NCBI GenBank assembly: GCA_965197925.1
Contig: CBDAOC010000018.1
Span: 160,001 to 224,000 of the forward strand
Length of the DNA stretch: 64,000 bases
Reading direction: 5' to 3'
Source: Nitrososphaerales archaeon
Lineage (GTDB): Archaea > Thermoproteota > Nitrososphaeria > Nitrososphaerales > UBA213
This document shows, one piece after another, positions 4,597-50,115 of this stretch; positions within the stretch are counted from its first letter, which is position 1; each line of letters begins with the position of its first letter. The position numbers and the translations under genes were made by a program. Under the pieces are notes generated by a model that ran no database searches, was not told where the DNA came from, and was given only the letters and a program-made list of their open reading frames with translations.

Positions 4597-4619
4597 ATAT
4601 TTAATTAATTGACAATCTA

Positions 4620-4801
4620 GTTTCAATCCTTGTTATTATGGATTCATCATTATGATTATGATCATTCGTTCATAACGATCCCAGAGTGTCGGTTTCAATC
4701 CTTGTTATTATGGATTCATCATTATGATTCAAGTGTATGCTCATCGACCTCAATCCGTATATTAGTTTCAATCCTTGTTATTATGGATTCATCATTATGA
4801 T
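4620..4801 (-). CRISPR. CRISPR mini-array A: 3 identical 37-bp repeats, 2 spacers (35 and 36 bp)
   Basis: GTTTCAATCCTTGTTATTATGGATTCATCATTATGAT at 4620, 4692, 4765; reverse complement ends ACAAGGATTGAAAC, the usual 3' handle. Confidence 0.92.
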
Positions 4802-4851
4802 CTTTATCGTCGTAATATGCTGTTAATTTCTCTCCAGATGCGTTTGTCAAT

Positions 4852-23038: not shown

Positions 23039-26000
23039 TCATATGTGGCCAGTAGTTACTAAACGAAGAATAGAAAAAATTGGTTTTATATCTCCCTTAA
23101 TTATGAGCTTCACAGCGGAATAATGCCTCACCGTTCTGACAAGTCCCCCCCCAACATCATTCTCACCGCCATCTAACCTATCTATACCTATACCACCAAA
23201 CAAGTTATCATCTCCATCTTGTCCAAATAAACTGTCATCCTCTGTTCCACCAGACAAACCATCATTACCATCCCCACCAAATATACGGTCATTTCCAGAA
23301 CCACCAAATGCTCTGTCATTACCTTGACCAAGACTTATGAAGTCGTGTCCCATTCCACCACCTGCTGTATCATTACCATTTCCTCCAAATATCTTATCAT
23401 CTCCATCTCCACTACAGATTATGTCATTGCCGCCTAATCCAACTATGGTATCATTTCCTCCCAATCCATGGATTACATCAACTTCGCCTGTTCCCACAAG
23501 GATATCATTACCTGCAGTGCCTATTAGAGTAGGCATCACATTAAAGCAGTTTAGCCCAATTCCTTCAATATTTATGATACCATTAAACTCCTGGTTCATA
23601 GATGAACCATCTCTGATATCCATGTAATTTGCTTCAAGGTCCATCATCTCTGTTATCACAGATACGGGAGGAGTTTCAGGAGTGCCAGGCGTTGCATCAA
23701 CCAGTATCGCCATTGGTATGGTTATCTGTGCTACAAATGTTCCAGTATTGGTACCTGTCTCCAATAGTGTAGTATTTACTGCATTGAAGAAAGAGTCTAT
23801 TTCTCCTGGTGCACAGCTATTGGCATCACCACCTAGTATACCAGATACCGCTGGATCTACCTCTGAGCATACTCTTTCTTCACTTAACTCGAAGAAGACA
23901 AAACTATCAATGGGTAGGTGGTACCTCTCTTGGGAATCTGCTCTTCTGTTAAGGTCCTCATCCTTTATGGTCAGGAAGGCATCCTGTCCAAATGAGAATA
24001 AACTCCTATCCCATTCTATCATACCATCTCTAGTTTCGTAGTCGAATGTTACATTTACTTCCCTGAAGAAATCTACGCTGTCAGTATCGAAGTATGTGAA
24101 CGCTAATCTGTTGGGTGTAACTAATCTATTCGGTACCCACATCTTCACTGGATCACCAGTCAAGGTAATGTCAGCCAATATATCCGACACGGTGTCGAAT
24201 TGGTTGAACGTGAAAAAATCAGCCCTCCCGCTGAATACACTGGAGTTAGAACCATCTTCACCAAGGTCCATCCTGTAGGCAACGTTTGAGAATGCAGTAC
24301 CTATAGGTGAGGCGATATTGTCAGGCTCCTGATCGGTTGGTGCAGGAGAGAATACTACGCCGAGTCCAACTATGTCTACTAGTATGGTGTGGGCAACTAG
24401 ACTTATGATATCAGCCGTATCGATTATTCCTGAATCATCATCTAGTAAGAGTGTAGTTACTCTAATCTGGTCCTCTGGTTCAACCATTGGATAGTCTACC
24501 AAGTCAAGAACTCTGAATGCACCCACAGAGATCCTACTTGTTGTTAGGTCTCTGTCGAAACCAACAGCATCGCTACCTGTTAGTGTGTCCCAAGGATCAC
24601 CTGGTCCAATTACACCAGGAGACAAATCAGGTAAGCTATCATAAACTTCTCCAGTCAATGGATTTCCGTCTATGTCTCTATTGTCCGTCTCTTTTATCTG
24701 AAAGTCAACTATCTGTGATGCATGTACACATGTCTCGTCGAATGCGATCTCTGAATCTGTTTCTCCATCAGCCATACATGCTGGATCTACAGCGTCTATC
24801 TTTGCAACTAGTTGTTCGATTCCTGTTGTGGTATGAAGTTGTTGTACATTCATGTGCAGAAGGTTATACCTTGGCATGTCAACGGTAAGCAATTCATCAT
24901 CAGGTATAGGACCTGCGCCCAATAGGCCGAGAACTACATCCCTTCCTATTACCTCACCTGTAGATCTGGTGATTCTTGCTACTTGTGTGACAAAGTTCTC
25001 TTGCTGTTCATCCAGCAATGAACCGCCAAATTCCTGTAAGTTATTTACCCTTATCTGTCCCAGAATCTGGGCTTTAGTGGCCGTTGTACTGAATTGGACA
25101 TCATTGATATCGTCAATGGTTACACTGGTATCAATCATGATGGCATTGGGATTGTCAAAGCCGATCCGATCTGTGGTAAATACTAGGGAGAACTTGTCAT
25201 TTTCTGTTGGTAAATCAAATTCACTATCCCTGCTGACTGCTATAATATCAAAAAAATGAGCTTGGAACGCCTCTGGACCGAACGTGCCTCCTGTAGCGTC
25301 AACTACATCATCATCGTTGAAATCTGCAAGAACGTTAGCTCCTGTGTCATTTAGACCGAACAATGCAGTATCCCCTTGCGCTGACAAGAATATAGCTTCC
25401 CATATCTGAAGGACGTTGTTCAATGTTGGGTCAAATATTCCACCGGCATCAAGAGCAGTCCTCGTGTTAATTAGAGGGATTGGTTCTCCAACTTCTAATA
25501 TGTTGTTTGCATTCCTTCCATCACGTGGTTCACTTGCTGCGCTACTCAAGTTCTGGTCAGGATCTGTGACAATAAATACCGCTCTATCAGCAGAATCAAA
25601 AACCTCTCCATCAACACTTGTAATGCCATCATGTAAAGCAAATGGAACACTGCTGACTAAATCGAAGTACTTGAAATTAGCAATTCTGTCTCTAACACCT
25701 GCGAATATTGTAGACCTGTCACCTTTTCTTGCTTGACCCGTGTTGAAGCTGCCAGAGTTTGGTTTGGCTGATGCTTCATTGATCCTAACTACAGATGAAA
25801 GGTCTCCTGGTTGTGCAGCACTGATATCTATTGGTATAGCGGTACCTGGTAAGAATACAGTATCGATATCGTCAAATTCTGTAGTTAATCTGGCATTCTC
25901 TCTTACTAGAATGAATGAGGAGAGTCTGGTACAAAGTTCACTTCCCTATCCAGAGATTCTGAAAAGGCGAAGATCCATGCTACAGATTCAACTCCATCGT

Positions 26001-26268: not shown

Positions 26269-27148
26269 GAAGTCATCCCAATACTCTCCAATACATCATA
26301 ATCGACGAAATGATAACAAATGCCAGATAGTTTTGTGCATTCTTCTCATATCTGATCCTGGTTCTGTGGAACCCATTCTTCAACCAGGCAAAGAATCTCT
26401 CCACAACATAGCGCGTCTTGCCGTATAGGTATTGTTCTGTATTATCATTTTGTTGTTGTGTCTTACTGTTTTTTCTGTAAGGTATGCAGTCAGAGATTTT
26501 TCTTTTGGTGAGGTATTTCCTGATGAATTCTGCATCATAGCCCTTGTCTGCTTGGCACCGCGCAATTTTTCTGATAGATCTCTCATCCAGATATTGTGAG
26601 ATGCCATCCATCACGTCTACAAATCTTGCAGAGTCATGCTGATTTGCAGGACCCATCACTACTGAGACTGGCAGTCCGTTTTGTTCCACCGCAACGTGTA
26701 TTTTTGTGCCTGAAATCCTGTTGAATCCGTTGTATCCTATGACGCTTCCCCTTTTTTGGCCGGAACTGATGACGAATCGACCGTTTTTTGCAGCTGCATC
26801 TTGCCTGATCTGTGGGCTGATTTGACTGCAGCGGAGAGGATATTCTTCCATATTCCACGTCGCTGCCAGTTCTGCAGTCTGCGGTGCGCAGTTGATTTGG
26901 AGCCGTACCTTTGTGACATCCCAGTCCACCTGCATCCTGTTATCCCGACAAACAGGATTCCGTTGACTGTCTTTCTGTCGTCTGCCCTTGGCCTTCCGGT
27001 TCTGGCTGGCTTGGGGAGATGCGGTGATATCATCTTCCATTGTTCACCTGTTATCTCCTGAAATTTCATGATCTGCTACGGGCAGCATTGCAAATAGATC
27101 CAAATGATCGTCAATTATTCACTAAATGATCAGTTTTGGGATCAGTTG
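26269..27148 (-). mobile_element. IS5-family element type B, copy 1 (apparently intact, -1 frameshift type)
   Basis: ORFs 26737-27069 and 26273-27040 overlap at GCC AAA AAA GGG G; imperfect TIRs; DKGYD and RYVVERFFAW motifs. Confidence 0.93.
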
Positions 27149-28757
27149 GATAAAGGTAAACGTTGACTTCGTAGAACTTTCAGCTTGATGTATAACTTCC
27201 CATCCTTTTCGAATGTTTCAATGTGCTCAATATCCCGTTTTCCTAAATTACCAAACCCTCGTTGCTTCCATTTACCATTGAACCTATAAAATCCATTTTG
27301 AAGGTAGAACACGTCATCAGCATGATCCTTGGAAGAAAACTCACCTAACTCCGAGGAGTCTAGGCCAAGTTCTTTGGTGGTGCAGATTGAATCGGTTGCA
27401 AAACTAACAACACCCCTTCCCAAGGCATTATCAACCACAAATTTGTAAAGCTAAGCTCTAGTACTCCCTGTTATGGTTGCAAAAATAACAGGGCAGAATA
27501 AGTTTCCTATTACGTGTTTAACTTTCTGGCCTGTCTTTCCGTATATAGAATTTAGAATTAACTTTATGACTGATTGACGTGGATCGTTAGCAGTCTTTAG
27601 TTCCATCCTTTTCTGGTAAAGGTCTTCAATAAAGTTCTTGTATGGACGATAATCAGAGTTTGGGATAAACTGCCGAGATTGCAATATTTTATAATATGTA
27701 TTTGGACATGCTCTCAGCTCATCTATCGTTGCATATGTTATGAAACGGCCAGAAGGAAAGCTCAAGTCGCCATTAACTCTAAAAGGAAATGGTGCGATGT
27801 AATTCCCGTCTGGAATGTCTGCCAGAATTTTGAAAAAGCCTAGCTTTGCGTCATAATGAATATTGTTTCCATTTATCCACCTTCCGTCAGTCAGATCTGG
27901 AAGTTTAGCATTTTATCTGGATATGCCGAGTTTATATCATATAGGAATGCCTTGCCAATGAACCCACGTTTCAGCATCTCAAATCTTCCCCCAAAATATG
28001 ATCGAAAAGCCAAGTCCTGTACGTCATAGGGAATGGAATCAAACAGTGGAAAGTTTAACCCACTGTTTATCACCACCTTTTCTGCTAGATATGCAGGTGA
28101 GAGCCATTTTTGTGGAAAAAATCCAAAGATATCATAAAACAGATGTATCCAATGTTGTGATAACTCTTCCGTATACTTACAGTCCTGAATACAATAATTT
28201 CTTACCTCATTAGTATTACGGCGATAAAACCTTGGAGAAAATTGACTTCTATCCCCCTTGAAACCTAGATACGACTCATCTACGGGGCCTATATTATCTT
28301 GGTAATCCTTTGCAAGACCCTTACCGTAGAATTGCGCTATATCATAAAACTTTACGGAATGATGACCTTTATTGATAGTGAGACATTTTTTCGGATAGTA
28401 AGTATAGCGGTAATCTCCATACTTGAACGATAATTTTCCAGTAGTCTTATACGTGCTTAACGCATTCCCAAACACTGCTTTTAAAATAACTTCAGCATCA
28501 TATTCCAATCGATAGAAGAAATTCCATGCACCTTGGTACTTCTTACAATAAAGAAATCTTGTCAAAGACATAGGCGTTATTTTATCGAGATACCTTTTAT
28601 CAGAATCTGCTATTAGAAATACATCGCCCTGATAGGTTTCTACATCTACAGCATAGACTTTTCGTGGTTCTGATTTTGCTGGATCTCTGTACTGGATTTT
28701 ATTAGTCCATAACTTTCGTAGATCCTTGTAGTCTGTTATGGAGATGGATTCTGCCAT
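27149..28757 (-). pseudogene. Protein-primed family B DNA polymerase (casposon-type); one frameshift, one in-frame stop, 3'-truncated by IS5
   Basis: ExoI VDVET, ExoIII YCIQD, SYFGGRFE, motif A YDINSAYP, motif B KLILNSIYGKTGQ, motif C ATDS across ORFs 27891-28757, 27451-27765, 27142-27438. Confidence 0.9.
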
Positions 28758-29720: not shown

Positions 29721-30359
29721 ATGATTAGCAGTGAACCACGCAGAACAGACAAGAGTGTCCCTAGGAGGACGGAGTTTGGAGAAGTAAAGCAAAGAGAGAT
29801 ATCGATTCTTAAAACCATCAAGGAACATCCAAACATACATCACAACGCATTGAAGAAAATTATTGTTGAGGAGCTGGATCTTGTAGCAATTAAAACATTT
29901 GACCGATTAATAAAAGAATTGATAAAAACTTACAAGATTTCTTTTACTTATGAGAATAATAAAAAGCTCTATTCGATTCCAAATATTTCAATTCTACAAG
30001 ATTCTCAGGATTTAATAATACCGTATCTAAACTCTATGAACGAGCATCTTAAAATATTTGAAAAAGTGTATCCAAGGCTGTCTTATTATGAGAAGGTTGT
30101 AATTTCAGAGCATTTTGTTAAACAATTGCTGAGTAACTTATACGGGATAGATTTGTACCGTCAAATTAATTCTGATAAAAAAATAGAAGATTATCTTCAA
30201 ATCAAAGATGATTTTATGAAAAAGATAAGGAAGATTTTAGAAATATTCTCCCACGATTCTGCCGGTGGTGCTTTAACTTCCAACCTTCTATTTAGCATAA
30301 TAAATCTGAATCCAGATCAGAATGCCGAAGTAGCCTCCCTAATGAATTCTAAGAAATAA
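29721..30359 (+). CDS. Winged-HTH-like regulator, divergent from the pPolB operon
   Basis: ILKTIKEHPNIHHNALKK...KTFDRLIKEL...KLY N-terminal wHTH pattern. Confidence 0.65.
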   Translation: MISSEPRRTDKSVPRRTEFGEVKQREISILKTIKEHPNIHHNALKKIIVEELDLVAIKTFDRLIKELIKTYKISFTYENNKKLYSIPNISILQDSQDLIIPYLNSMNEHLKIFEKVYPRLSYYEKVVISEHFVKQLLSNLYGIDLYRQINSDKKIEDYLQIKDDFMKKIRKILEIFSHDSAGGALTSNLLFSIINLNPDQNAEVASLMNSKK

Positions 30360-30374
30360 TAAAATTCCTCTATT

Positions 30375-30605
30375 CTAATCAGATCCACTTCCAGAGTCCA
30401 CCTTGAGGACCTCACAAAATTCTTCTACAATAGTTATTTCGGAGAGGCTCTTTACCTTTGGTTCTCTGCTTGATTGCGTTTCTATTTTTTCTTTGATTAC
30501 TTTCCGTATAGGAGCTGAAGGAGTGCATCCCTCTTTGTTGCATATATCCACTAATCTATTATGTTCATCCTCTGTAAGTTTGTTAGATACCATTCGTTGA
30601 CCCAC
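30375..30605 (-). CDS. Small RHH/CopG-like protein (left IR copy)
   Basis: RMVSNKLTEDEHNRLVDICNKEGCTPS strand-helix-helix pattern. Confidence 0.6.
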   Translation of the reverse strand: MGQRMVSNKLTEDEHNRLVDICNKEGCTPSAPIRKVIKEKIETQSSREPKVKSLSEITIVEEFCEVLKVDSGSGSD

Positions 30606-30670
30606 GGTAGACCTAGGTAGACAATAGATAGACCTGAGCTAAAAAACTTTCGATTATAATAAATTCAACG

Positions 30671-30777
30671 CTTACGACAAGCGTCAGTTTTCTAGGCGTA
30701 AAAGGGGGGGATACCATTTTTATTCAGTAGCTATAAAAAGTGATTCCCCCCTCCTAGGCACGGATTTGTGTCGCTTA
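30671..30777. mobile_element. Head-to-head pair of putative casposon termini
   Basis: ...AAAAGGGGGGGATACCATT, about 19 bp, then AAGTGATTCCCCCCTCCTAGG...; each side has a further copy at 31723 or 34277. Confidence 0.6.
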
Positions 30778-30861
30778 CTAGATTATAATACACGTTATGG
30801 TCTACCTCTATAATCGAAAGTTTTTTAGCTCAGGTCTATCTATTGTCTACCTAGGTCTACC

Positions 30862-31092
30862 GTGGGTCAACGAATGGTATCTAACAAACTTACAGAGGAT
30901 GAACATAATAGATTAGTGGATATATGCAACAAAGAGGGATGCACTCCTTCAGCTCCTATACGGAAAGTAATCAAAGAAAAAATAGAAACGCAATCAAGCA
31001 GAGAACCAAAGGTAAAGAGCCTCTCCGAAATAACTATTGTAGAAGAATTTTGTGAGGTCCTCAAGGTGGACTCTGGAAGTGGATCTGATTAG
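30862..31092 (+). CDS. Small RHH/CopG-like protein (right IR copy)
   Basis: Identical to 30375-30605. Confidence 0.6.
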   Translation: MGQRMVSNKLTEDEHNRLVDICNKEGCTPSAPIRKVIKEKIETQSSREPKVKSLSEITIVEEFCEVLKVDSGSGSD

Positions 31093-31247
31093 AATAGAGG
31101 AATTTTATTATTTCTAATTAAGCAATGCAGCTAAGGTAATCAATATCCTTCTTTTGGGCGATATTTTTTACCATATATAAAAACAAAGGTGTAGATCCCC
31201 AACTATAATTAACCCTATATGATCCTTATAGAATAAATGATTGAGAA

Positions 31248-31722
31248 ATGAAAGTGTGGAGATCCTTCGGGGAAGCCAGAAAGTTTGTACATTCATTAAA
31301 ACTAAAAAATAAGAACGAGTGGCAACAATATTGCAAGTCTGACGAAAAACCTGGTGATATTCCGTCTTCACCGGATAAGATCTATCGAAATAAGAGTTGG
31401 TATGGTTATCTTGACTGGTTAGGGAACGAGGCGAAAAGGGGTAGAAAACTTTGGCTAGGAAAGCATTTTGCAGAAGAACGTCAGAGAAAGCTGAACAAGG
31501 CGGGAAGGGGTAGAAAGAAATCGGAAGAACATAAAAGAAAGAAGAGCAGGTAAAAACGGTAAAAAAAGAACAGAAGAATCAAAGAGAAAGATGAGTGAGG
31601 CGGCAAAGGGCAAAACAAATTCTGGTCACTTCAAAAAAGAGGTAATACCTTAAAATAGAGGAAAAAGAGGAGTATATTCAGAAGAAACTAAGAGAAAGAA
31701 GAGCGAGGCGATGAATGGTAAA
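31248..31722 (+). pseudogene. Integrase-repeat-unit protein with NUMOD3-like repeats, broken
   Basis: SFGEARKFVHSLKLK...EW..YCK....DIPSSPDKIY....WYGYLDWLG, then SEEHKRKKS, TEESKRKMSEA and SEETKRKKSEA across stops and shifts. Confidence 0.7.
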
Positions 31723-31761
31723 AAGAGTATCCCCCTCCTAGGCACGGATTTGTGTCGCTTA
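31723..31761 (+). repeat. Third terminus-like motif
   Basis: AAGAGTATCCCCCTCCTAGGCACGGATTTGTGTCGCTTA; last 31 nt identical to 30747-30777. Confidence 0.85.
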
Positions 31762-32142
31762 TCTAAATTAATACGCAGGTTATGATTAGTTGGATAATGG
31801 TTAAGATCTTAATAAGTCAATACATTGTGAAAAGTTTATTCTTGCACAGTTATGGACTTTTAATAAAAGTCAAGAATATCAGATTAGTATTCTCTTAAGG
31901 AATAGATCCCTTCAATGACAATAGGGAAATCTTAGAGCTGCCTGCAAGAGCTTGTCCATTTTAAAGTGATCATACAGGGGAATGGTTATGTTTCTATTGA
32001 AGCATTGTAGTACTTGTCAGAATCAAATATCAATGTAGTATTGTTGGATAAGCATGGTAAGTTATACACCTTGATTAAACTGTAGATAGACCTTGGTATA
32101 TGTTAATTAACTTTAAAATCGAGATTATACATATGATATATT

Positions 32143-32614: not shown

Positions 32615-33178
32615 ATGCCACAAACAAAGGCGGTTGTTAGCGTAGAAAATGTCGTTGCGTCTGCAAGCGTAAATCAAAGGATAAATCTTAACGATATAAC
32701 ACAAAAATTTCCTGACGTCGAATACCATCCCGATCAGTTCCCGGGCTTGGTCTTTAGGATAAAATCACCCAAAACCGCTACCTTAATCTTCAGTACTGGC
32801 AAGATGGTTTGTACAGGTGGCAAATCAGAAGATCAATCTATCAAGGCTGTAAATAGTGTAGTTCAGAAACTGAAGAAGGGTGGGATTCCCATAGAAAACG
32901 AACCTTCCATAGAGATACAGAACATAGTTGCATCTGTCAATCTAGGGGGCAAGATAAACATAGAACTTGCTGCTAGAGTGTTACCTAGGAGCATGTATGA
33001 GCCAGAGCAGTTCCCTGGCTTGATACACAGAATACTGGATCCTAAAAGTGTAATACTTCTATTTGCTAGCGGTAAGCTCGTATGTACTGGTACCAAGAAG
33101 GAGAACGAGGTTTATAGAGTAATAAACGCGTTGCATATACTGCTGGAAGAGAAGGAGTTAATGATATACGAGAGTTAA
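32615..33178 (+). CDS. tbp: TATA-box-binding protein
   Basis: Two repeats: ENVVAS..YHPDQFPGLVFR..LIFSTGKMVCTG and QNIVAS..YEPEQFPGL..LLFASGKLVCTG. Confidence 0.97.
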   Translation: MPQTKAVVSVENVVASASVNQRINLNDITQKFPDVEYHPDQFPGLVFRIKSPKTATLIFSTGKMVCTGGKSEDQSIKAVNSVVQKLKKGGIPIENEPSIEIQNIVASVNLGGKINIELAARVLPRSMYEPEQFPGLIHRILDPKSVILLFASGKLVCTGTKKENEVYRVINALHILLEEKELMIYES

Positions 33179-33214
33179 ATCTTCTGTTTGATCTGTTTTC
33201 TCGAACGATAACCA

Positions 33215-33244
33215 GTTTGAATCGAACTATTATAGAATTGAAAG
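33215..33244 (+). CRISPR. Solitary 30-bp CRISPR-type repeat
   Basis: GTTTGAATCGAACTATTATAGAATTGAAAG, same family as the repeats at 33585 and 33651. Confidence 0.75.
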
Positions 33245-33584
33245 TCTTAAGAATATCTTAAGACCATGTGGTATAATCTGGATGCTGATGATGAAAGGAA
33301 AAGCCGTCTGAAGTTTGATGAATAATATAGGCGAGTTGAAGCATCCTCTAAAGCCCACATTGATGGAATCTTGACAATCTTATCAGTCTTGGGAGTAGTT
33401 GGAGAGTATTTGAAGAGTGTTTTAATGTAATCTTAAGAAATGTTAAGAGTGGTTTGAGAGTATTTGAAGACCATCATAAGAGTATTTTAATACTCAATCA
33501 TAATTATAATTACGTACAGGGTCTTCTCGATTCTATTCGTGGAAAACTACTTGTAGAAAATTCTACGAATAGAATCTATATCAT

Positions 33585-33680
33585 GTTTGAATCGAACTCT
33601 TATAGGATTGAAATGATGTTAGCGTTATGGTCGTGGTAACTGATTGTGCGGTTTGAATCGAACTAATTGGAAATTGAAAC
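33585..33680 (+). CRISPR. CRISPR mini-array B: 2 divergent 30-bp repeats, one 36-bp spacer
   Basis: GTTTGAATCGAACTCTTATAGGATTGAAAT, spacer 33615-33650, GTTTGAATCGAACTAATTGGAAATTGAAAC. Confidence 0.8.
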
Positions 33681-34017
33681 TTGAATTCGATCTAATTCCG
33701 TTCTACAGAGACAACAAAACTAACTTTTTTGATATGATCTTTTAGATGGATACTAACACCGTAACCTTTCAGTAATTTGATATTGTAATGGTTCTTCTTT
33801 CCTTTGAGTAACATGATCTATCAGATTTCACTGATCAAAATCTTTACGGCAGAGTGTCATATTTTTAAGCGGAAAGTGGGACATACAATTTTTTTGATTG
33901 GTGTTGTAGTAAGGAATATGTTAGAGGGTTGTTCATTCCAACTTTTCATAACCTATCTATAACTTTGGAGTATTTGCATCTTATGATAGAACTCTAGAAC
34001 ATCGTAAAAAGAAACAT

Positions 34018-34124
34018 AGAACAGATAGAACACCTCAGAACAGAGAACAGGCCCTATACAGTATCTATACAGTATCTATACAGTATCTATACAGTAGGAT
34101 TATCTGTTCTGCGTTCTGTGTTCT
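34018..34124. repeat. Iteron-like structure: AGAACA x4, 11-bp tandem core x4, inverted (T/C)GTTCT x3
   Basis: CTATACAGTA(T) at 34054, 34065, 34076, 34087, flanked by opposed hexamer runs. Confidence 0.75.
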
Positions 34125-34257
34125 TTTCCTACTTGAGGATAAGGTGAAGGATTAGACGACTTGGATATTTGGCAATCTACAACTGCAGAGGATATCAGTG
34201 GGCAAAAATGACCTATTCGAATGTGTTGCATGTTGCGTGTTGCAGATTTTTTGCTTA

Positions 34258-34323
34258 GAATTTATTGATGAAGAATAAGAGTATCCCTCCACCTTACGCA
34301 TGGAAATCTGACGCTTGTCGTAA
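34258..34323 (+). mobile_element. Fourth terminus-like motif preceded by an aEF-2 3'-end-like sequence
   Basis: GAA TTT ATT GAT GAA GAA TAA runs into GAGTATCCCTCCACCTTACGC...CTGACGCTTGTCGTAA; last 16 nt match the reverse complement of 30672-30687. Confidence 0.6.
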
Positions 34324-34438
34324 AGCTTGTATGTATCATATTCGAAAAGTTTAGATCTATTCTACCTGTAGTCTAAGATCATGGACTCTACAAGATTCGA
34401 GTTACAAAACAGATAGTATATAGCAGCGTTATCCAATT

Positions 34439-34747
34439 TTGATGGGATTGGGCTCGATAAAGATACTCATAGATGCAATGCGTGACGGGATTGACCTAGA
34501 ATTAAATAAACTGGGTTATGAGGCTTATAGCGTCAGGAAGCTTGTTGAGAAGGGAGAGAAATTAAAGAGTGATTATTCTATTATAAAATATGCTGAACAA
34601 AATAAAATGATTTTGGTTACAGAAGATATTGATAACATAGAGGGTTGTATGGAGAACAACATAGAATGTGTACACTTTGAACAGATTCATTCTCTCAACT
34701 ATCTTCTGGAAGCGTTAGAAAAGATAACACAGATTGAATTAGCATAG
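34439..34747 (+). CDS. DUF5615 / PIN-like domain protein
   Basis: KILIDAM..., LGYEAYSV, SDYSIIKYA, ILVTED. Confidence 0.8.
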   Translation: MMGLGSIKILIDAMRDGIDLELNKLGYEAYSVRKLVEKGEKLKSDYSIIKYAEQNKMILVTEDIDNIEGCMENNIECVHFEQIHSLNYLLEALEKITQIELA

Positions 34748-34790
34748 AACCATCTAGATCATGGTTTAGCTTTAGTCTATCAGGTCTACA

Positions 34791-35015
34791 ATGACTCTAC
34801 GAGTTGTGTATAAATTAACAGAAGAAGAGCATGCAAGGTTGCTTGAATTTTGCAGTAGGGGAGGATGTACTCCATCTGCAATGGTAAAAGAAACTATTAT
34901 CATAAGGATTATACCCGAATCTCCGACGAGAGAGAGAAACCTTATGGACATGTTAAGAGAACTTTCGAACAAACACCAACTAGTGAAGAGCTGTAAGAGT
35001 AGTTTTCACTATTGA
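34791..35015 (+). CDS. RHH/CopG-like protein, paralog of the IR-encoded gene
   Basis: RVVYKLTEEEHARLLEFCSRGGCTPSA versus RMVSNKLTEDEHNRLVDICNKEGCTPSA. Confidence 0.6.
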   Translation: MTLRVVYKLTEEEHARLLEFCSRGGCTPSAMVKETIIIRIIPESPTRERNLMDMLRELSNKHQLVKSCKSSFHY

Positions 35016-49169: not shown

Positions 49170-49705
49170 AGGAATCATTTTTCTACAGGTATATTGGGTT
49201 TAAGCTCACTGAAATCCAAGTGATTTATTCTTCCCTCAATATACATCATCAATTCTCTAGTCTTTATCTCGATAATACTAGATCACTGATGCTTTCTGTT
49301 CTTATAGATAACACTCATTCCAAAAAGTTTTCCAAGTTTGGTTAACAAAAGTTTTACAGCATTTGGTCTTAATCTAATGTTCCCTTTTAGTTTCTAGGAA
49401 ATCCTTCTTCTTTATCCACTTCCTAAATGCAATTTTAACAACAGTGATATCTAGCCATCTAAAAGGTTCCATCAAATCATATACCAATGATGCCTTATTG
49501 TTGTAGTTTTCATGCAAAAATCCTACATAAGCATCCAAACCAACTTTGTTGACAGCCTTCCAACATTCACTTTCTAAAACAGAATATCCATAATTCAGCA
49601 AAGCGTTAACAGGATCAATGACATTCCTGGGTTTTCTTTGACCACTCCTGGCTTCAAACTCAAACTTATCATCAATTACGTTAGTTATAGCATCCCAGTA
49701 TCATT
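49170..49705 (-). pseudogene. cas1: Cas1 C-terminal half, casposase-like, frameshifted
   Basis: DPVNALLNYGYSVLESEC..VGLDAYVGFLH...SLVYDLMEPFRWL, then in shifted frames LRPNAVKLL and IKTRELMMYIEG....LDFS; no cas2 or array beside it. Confidence 0.85.
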
Positions 49706-50115
49706 GTATACCACAAAACACTTGTCCCCTGCCATTAGAATCATGTTATCTCACCTCACCCAACAATATCTTATCTTGAGGCGTAGAGAAGGCTAACAAA
49801 ACGATTATTCATAATATAGATTTGAGCCACTAGTTTTATACACCATCTGTCCTCGCTTCAAGACTAGAATCTGATAAGACCATCAATCAGATACATGAGT
49901 TCTAGTAAATTTACATTGAGCTAGAACATTTACACAGACAACATAAAGCTTAAGAGTATTTACGAACTAATTTACTGTTATGAACTGTCTTATACCGCCG
50001 GGAATATTCCTCGGTCTGATTCCAGTATTGTCATCTCTGGATATCTCTTCTTATTGAAATGGCCGTTCCGAAGGAATTCTTAACTTCACATATGGAAATA
50101 GTGTTAGGGTGTAGT

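Follow-up and report, generated by a model that had tools for sequence, protein, structure and literature searches.

The described systems closest to the locus analysed here are the family-1 casposons, for which the available sections of the published accounts record aEF-2 targeting, tandem arrays and TIR/TSD overlap (PMC4046053, PMC6563490). Casposase enzyme data are given in the accessible text of PMC6614799 and PMC8464041; in the latter, the TSD of the family-1 enzyme from N. koreensis was measured as 13 bp and the minimal leader in vitro was TTT. Methanosarcina mazei casposons are described as leaving solo TIRs, occupying secondary sites and being ferried by other elements (PMC4779613, available sections). 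The route by which a casposon exits its donor site is called unknown in the accessible part of PMC6977970, and the accessible part of PMC12097351 adds nothing on casposon targets. In a search of the open-access literature, no description was found of pads that carry the aEF-2 tail without its gene, and the recurrent gene-less junction pattern considered below is apparently undescribed so far.

The window, i.e. the whole 64,000-nucleotide stretch analysed, comes from a Nitrososphaerales genome (G000; C1, C6 and C17-C20 are contigs of this genome, and L-numbers are loci elsewhere). As the earlier note had observed, positions 34258-34278 encode EFIDEE and a stop codon with no EF-2 coding sequence upstream of 34258, and then run into GAGTATCCCTCC. 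The genome has a single aEF-2 gene (C1, about 75775-77859; TIGR00490 above cut-off), which ends EFIDKE-stop, in line with the FIDxE-like ending given in the earlier note, and which is followed immediately by a TIR. Comparison of the last codons of this gene with the 21-mer of the window gives 20/21 identical bases, with 0.0015 matches at one mismatch or fewer expected by chance in the 2.9-Mb genome; shuffled 21-mers (n = 60) gave 0.03 matches each at two mismatches. The window copy is nearer to the aEF-2 of its own host than to those of relatives, which match at 14-17 of 21 positions in the seven family relatives with a readable end. The features at and beside the copy are as follows.

34171-34198, plus strand: 28-nt scrap of an IS coding region, missing in three sequencing runs, a probable assembly error
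34204-34257, plus strand: block X, with TGTTG repeats, not a TIR; a second copy precedes the EF-2-tail copy on C19 (sequence comparison)
34258-34263, plus strand: leader, the six aEF-2 bases immediately 5' of the casposase cut, copied (sequence; PMC8464041, available sections)
34264-34276, plus strand: 13-bp TSD-type sequence, 12/13 identical to the host aEF-2 target (sequence comparison)
34277-34352, plus strand: family-1 casposon TIR, reading rightward, partner end not found (TIR profile; alignment to other genomes)
34439-34747, plus strand: DUF5615 gene behind the 34277 TIR (homologs in islands downstream of aEF-2)

Parsed by the 13-bp rule, the 21-mer consists of six leader bases, 13 TSD bases and two TIR bases, i.e. 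it is a left junction without its gene. The proposal of an aEF-2 target-site copy thus stands in so far as the 21 bases derive from the end of aEF-2, with a casposon end behind them, but it does not stand as a plain TSD; the TSD accounts for 13 bp and the six leader bases have also been copied, so that a plain TSD is insufficient. The 13-bp aEF-2 target is nevertheless present as a direct repeat, and TTT followed by the 13-mer (one mismatch or fewer) occurs at four places in the genome: aEF-2, C1:35814, the window and C19. The TTT leader is present in the window copy, the mismatch of which lies within the ATAA ruler motif described in the accessible text of PMC8464041, and the copy may, on sequence grounds, be impaired as a casposase target. 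The TIR at 34277 has a start shortened to AA, three A of the usual AAAAA being gone; its layout is that of the published TIRs of NitAR1-C1 and NitEve-C1, and it aligns with ends in other genomes. No partner end with a matching TSD was found among the 11 ends in the 20-contig assembly; the profile was seeded with these same ends, so that the 11 (five in the window) are a census and not a test.

The region from about 34070 to 34730 is bridged, without other letters, by contigs from three of four sequencing runs (three studies), one of which may be the source of the assembly; the fourth run (X1), which covered little of the stretch, was left out. The 28 bases of the IS scrap, about 60 upstream of the copy, are missing from the contigs of all three bridging runs, and the scrap is probably an assembly error. 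The 21-mer of the window is a genuine, misplaced copy of the end of the host aEF-2 gene, joined to a decayed casposon end.

It had further been proposed that the copy fixes the boundary of the casposon in the window. This is not the case, as the element concerned ends at 30721 with a different TSD, and the TIR at 34277 reads rightward, away from the pPolB element. The copy is instead the outer junction of another, decayed casposon end. Casposon activity in the window is itself supported, in that the motif at 34277 is a casposon end and the pPolB remnant is 52% identical to a complete family-1 pPolB. The remaining casposon debris comprises the following.

27142-28757, minus strand: broken protein-primed PolB, with a frameshift near 27890 and interrupted by an IS (ORFs, similarity)
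30643-30721, minus strand: end of the pPolB-bearing casposon remnant (TIR profile)
30722-30734, plus strand: 13-bp TSD within a tandem junction (ordered right end, TSD, left end) and different from the aEF-2 one (sequence)
30735-30782, plus strand: left end of the element that follows, almost the same as the one behind aEF-2 (sequence, TIR profile)
31720-31772, plus strand: another casposon end, accompanied by a casposase stub (31948-32070; TIR profile)
33737-33814, minus strand: casposase 5' stub behind the 33895 end (similarity)
33836-33895, minus strand: second TIR, arranged back to back with that at 34277, 380 nt away, its outer flank starting TTGAT (TIR profile)

Cas1 and pPolB are absent from the element starting at 34277, which contains only the DUF5615 gene and an IS; to the left of 34277 are the cas1 stubs and what remains of pPolB, and an uninterrupted casposase frame is present on C1. 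Four other genomes have DUF5615 homologs in islands downstream of aEF-2, which makes the DUF5615 gene likely cargo. A match of 34642-34922 to C18:282.4-282.7 kb was considered as the partner end and rejected, because it is the cargo tail once more, cut by an IS. All that is left of the element behind the window copy is a solo TIR with cargo, within an IS-scrambled cluster of casposon debris. G000 carries 38 near-complete copies of one IS, two identical ones of which flank 27.1-35.3 kb of the window.

Several other features of the window were recorded. Perfect 307-nt inverted arms (30352-30658 and 30809-31115) surround the tandem junction, although the two outermost TIRs differ in type; in three runs the depth over the arm is about doubled, so the arm is real. 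Between 31720 and 33895 two facing casposon ends, each with a casposase stub, enclose a TBP paralog at 32615-33178 (82% to one on C17) together with a set of three degenerate CRISPR repeats at 33208-33679, which match an array on C20. Four tandem 11-mers lie between inverted AGAACAG/CTGTTCT runs at 34030-34135, an origin-like or sub-terminal arrangement with a weak match at C19:28.6 kb. Elsewhere there are three CRISPR-like repeats spaced at 72-73 nt and adjoining an IS (4618-4808), a Cas1 fragment with stops (49428-49706) and an 836-aa ORF with RTX calcium-binding repeats (23039-25549). Rfam gave no meaningful match between 26 and 37 kb of the window. Further solo casposon ends stand at native sites in G000 (C20:205554, C20:213313, C20:766356 and C6:3798); one of these lies at the stop codon of guaA and its 13-bp flank is palindromic, and several flanks start ATTGA or TTGAT.

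At the host aEF-2 locus, the left TIR behind the gene and a remnant at C1:35.8 kb have been split by an IS, with an 8-base duplication at both halves. The order at C1:35.8 kb is an uninterrupted casposase frame, right TIR, 13-bp repeat, TAG and MPG synthase; the partner TSD of the aEF-2 casposon is thus at C1:35814, before MPG synthase, with the native TAG stop at C1:35826. MPG synthase directly follows aEF-2 in three of eight family relatives, and in three more the next genes are from the same cluster. The DNA that natively follows aEF-2 is not found behind the window copy, MPG synthase instead following the copy at C1:35814.

Junctions of this type are not confined to G000. A GTDB scan for the tail joined to a TIR gave at least 119 junctions in 118 loci, at least 54 directly behind aEF-2 and at least 65 without the gene (orphans, in at least 31 genomes). 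Among the matches listed, nearly all titled contigs with the pattern are from Nitrososphaerota, which points to a thaumarchaeal host for the window, and 19 orphans are on short contigs (L064 and 17 other loci) of a single assembly with the title Flavobacteriaceae, the junctions of which are probably mis-binned archaeal DNA; also among the matches listed, a right-TIR-like pattern is upstream of one of 65 orphans. The tail pattern without a TIR is present in 216 of 401 genomes of the order, several with more than one copy (150 of 243 matches listed), and the tail plus TIR pattern gave no match in viral contigs. When extra copies in families f12 and f15 were tallied without requiring a TIR (n = 20; copies in f9 left out), 19 had AAA behind them and 17 the full TIR pattern; empty pads are thus rare in these two families.

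Read upstream, orphans cease to resemble aEF-2 at 10 bases ahead of the Glu codon; this limit is seen in 62 non-redundant orphans and again when each genome contributes a single orphan. In the latter set (30 with enough flank), the invariant CC at -12/-11 is kept in only 3 and 5 of 30, and A(-10) in 20 of 30. Position -3 is A in 29 of 30 orphans, compared with 31% of aEF-2 genes; the leader zone is thus not simply a copy of the host gene. Orphans match their own aEF-2 at 25.8 of 31 positions as against 23.3 with permuted hosts (17 genomes; none of 20000 permutations as high, kinship being ignored). Where the flank was long enough, casposase remnants lie within 1.5 kb behind 6 of 31 orphans, as compared with 4 of 24 junctions at aEF-2, and a TIR-core motif is upstream of 6 of 56 orphans versus 4 to 9 of 56 in controls. 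Of 21 right junctions, 14 were flagged as being followed by another TIR, and those backed by native DNA are rare at every site; the one-endedness of the orphans may therefore reflect decay. Direct repeats at the leader boundary are suggestive only (13-mers with one mismatch, 8 of 35 versus 5 and 1; exact 11-mers, 4 versus 1 and 0), longest-word counts not confirming them. At L150, L102, L118 and L135, units of pad plus TIR stand head to tail with short cargo between them, like gene cassettes.

Orphan junctions recur across the order and are hit again by complete casposons. In two genomes, G163 and G334, an orphan site is occupied by an element that has Cas1, pPolB, a TSD and both TIRs, and an older solo TIR comes after it in each case. 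Behind cbiC, a pad is present in 8 of 30 loci, and the seven readable ones, from seven genomes, have seven different TIR starts; the pad is 86% identical, as compared with 76% for synonymous positions of cbiC and 43% for the TIR, and the leader zone there is native coding sequence down to the stop codon. At an ABC/RPA promoter, a pad common to five genomes is accompanied by different TIRs within an island of variable cargo. Orthologous sites lack the pad at leuS (29 of 30), at the ABC promoter (29 of 30) and at the G163 site (19 of the 20 listed, of 30). The divergent ABC/RPA promoter (L211, L212, L213, L215, L216) also has small variable insertions and is a hot spot apart from casposons. In G391 (L356, 663.5-669.1 kb) four more TIRs lie beyond a complete aEF-2 casposon, two of them in an inverted right end-TSD arrangement.

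The explanation tentatively favoured, as the best of those considered, is that the window copy arose when a casposon end left aEF-2 with host flank attached and was joined elsewhere. The end would depart from the aEF-2 donor site carrying 19-29 bases of flanking host DNA, e.g. as an uncut 5' flank, which would then be ligated in or would overwrite a similar site. A protein may prefer A-N6-AAC just upstream of the site, and each new insertion may refresh the landing site. Carry-over would account for the host-specific letters of the copies, for the scarcity of empty pads and for the way in which non-coding pads stay conserved while the TIRs next to them change; a founding event was not caught, there being neither a close empty/filled pair nor a first right junction. 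A broader and more doubtful proposal is that family-1 casposons seed their own landing sites, some 20-30 bases of aEF-2 flank becoming a leader-plus-target unit that is later stacked into and refreshed. Taken by itself, the window copy is a decayed relic, and it is atypical of the orphans.

If donor flank does travel with the casposon end, orphan junctions would record how casposons leave the donor site, and the near-universal target would be aEF-2-like sequence rather than the aEF-2 locus, with at least one published 'intergenic' target being aEF-2-like. If self-seeding is correct, the unit would be a self-propagating leader-repeat, and as such a natural model for a CRISPR array starting off an essential gene; the fixed upstream limit would then mark where donor DNA is cut or protected during mobilisation.

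On the upstream side of the window copy no right TIR directly adjoins it; block X occupies that position and the nearest left-facing TIR is 380 nt away. A third aEF-2-tail copy, at C19:284935-284915, differs from aEF-2 in the stop codon only, has no clear TIR (best 7-mer 4.7 bits) and shares with the window copy about 55 upstream bases, i.e. block X (80% over 75 nt); the score of this sharing exceeds those of all 2000 shuffles and 5000 random 60-mers. Block X plus tail gave no match in an exact scan of genome and metagenome contig collections, block X as DNA gave only short, chance-level matches in eight family genomes, and a block X profile run over G000 and the fetched loci found only the two G000 copies. 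Neither has an integrase gene beside it, and the longest direct words shared with the far end of the island are 8 and 9 nt, which is control-like in a scrambled genome. Both are without the A-N6-AAC leader of other orphans (-25 and -27 bits versus an orphan median of +10), and they share only GAA beyond what a right-end junction would show. The two G000 copies may therefore have an origin other than that of the other orphans.

A displaced tandem junction is a less likely source of the window copy, though not a negligible one. By this account the copy began as a normal array junction (right end, TSD, left end) at a target of aEF-2 type; about 380 bases, ending in block X, either separated the 33895 end from the TSD or replaced a right TIR, and IS activity carried the cluster off from aEF-2. 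The left-facing TIR 380 nt upstream has a flank that starts TTGAT like the target, and a cas1-side end is paired with a cargo-side end; family-1 arrays are published (PMC6563490, available sections), one such junction is present in the window (30722), and G000 is heavily scrambled by IS. The account leaves only GAA unexplained, and it accommodates the absence of the upstream A-N6-AAC signal from the G000 copies. However, the rebuilt locus reads aEF-2, TSD, one element, TSD, native stop and MPG synthase, with no room for more units. The C6 end is also flanked by TTGAT, so the flank at 33895 may reflect target preference, and neither X plus tail on C19 nor the 16-base leader of other orphans is explained.

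It is unlikely that the pad was instead brought in by an integrative element with an attachment site in the aEF-2 tail, block X being an arm of that element and a casposon later entering one of two decayed copies. The occurrence of X plus tail twice, once without a clear TIR, fits such an origin, as does the native TAG on C19, which is as at C1:35826. Some orphans lie at the edges of small islands with direct repeats (19 nt at L077, 15 nt at L120 and 12 nt at L105), but boundary repeats of at least 12 nt occur in 3 of 38 versus 1, 3 and 2 in controls. The orphans at L078 and L273 immediately follow an integrase stop codon, and sharing of sites by casposons and tyrosine-integrase elements is published (PMC4779613, available sections); yet among 60 loci with homologs of these integrases only two have a pad, one of them being the query. 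No integrase is near either G000 copy; among the 29 orphans that have 2 kb of flank, three integrase queries placed one upstream of a single orphan; and integrases next to orphans were not found with PF00589 (none close, five genomes) or PF16795 (none, a partly different five). The rarity of empty pads in f12 and f15 also argues against this account. Family f9 has aEF-2 3' tails of up to 99 nt, 0.5-8 kb apart and without TIRs (L030, L031, L032, L033, L256, L257), in which three queries found no integrase. These arrays are in its favour, and such EF-2 tails without any TIR imply that other routes to such copies exist.

A spacer-like capture, in which casposase joined a non-TIR end (block X) to an aEF-2-type target before a resident TIR, with GAA arising by chance, is improbable. 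The family-1 casposase does integrate random, preferably AT-ended, DNA in vitro (PMC8464041, available sections), and block X ends in TTT like a TIR, without the usual orphan leader; against this, there is no 13-bp repeat on the other side of the inserted DNA, the 13-mer being found only four times, a coincidence estimated at about 1 in 40 is needed, and the other orphans are left unexplained. A native near-match chosen by casposase, for which other G000 ends at native sites sharing only ATTGA with the target (e.g. the guaA end) could be cited, is scarcely credible given the two extra copies and the host-specific letters kept, and a pure chance match of the 21-mer is refuted by the 0.0015 matches expected.

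With respect to known systems, G000 shares with NitAR1-C1, NitAR2-C1 and NitNF5-C1/C2, as far as these are described in the available sections of PMC4046053 and PMC6563490, a common target, TIR layout, tandem junctions, a Cas1 casposase (65% to a complete family-1 Cas1) and pPolB (52%). The family-1 target copies published there lie at the aEF-2 locus, as TSDs that immediately adjoin a right TIR; by contrast, the window copy takes in leader bases, is not preceded by a right TIR and lies on a contig other than that of aEF-2. For NitEve-C1, the target of which is given as 'intergenic' (PMC6563490 and its supplement file 3, accessible parts), the G163 element has identical TSD and TIR letters. 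Relative to that published description, the G163 site reads as a leader and tail resembling those of aEF-2, and an older solo TIR follows the right end. Judged from its sequence, this NitEve-C1-type site looks like an orphan pad; it matches its host aEF-2 at 21 of 28 positions, a level at which a best native near-match is possible, with an estimated one such site per genome.

The 13-bp TSD and TTT leader of N. koreensis parse the window copy and the C1 pair exactly (PMC8464041, available sections). Three leader bases are sufficient in vitro in that system, whereas orphans elsewhere keep a signal that extends across 16 bases 5' of the cut. The M. mazei casposons, as described in the accessible text of PMC4779613, likewise show decay to solo TIRs, several sites per genome and co-habitation with other elements. 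Their secondary targets, however, share four bases only (CGCA), whereas in the junctions considered here 19-29 bases from the end of an essential gene are present at the new site.
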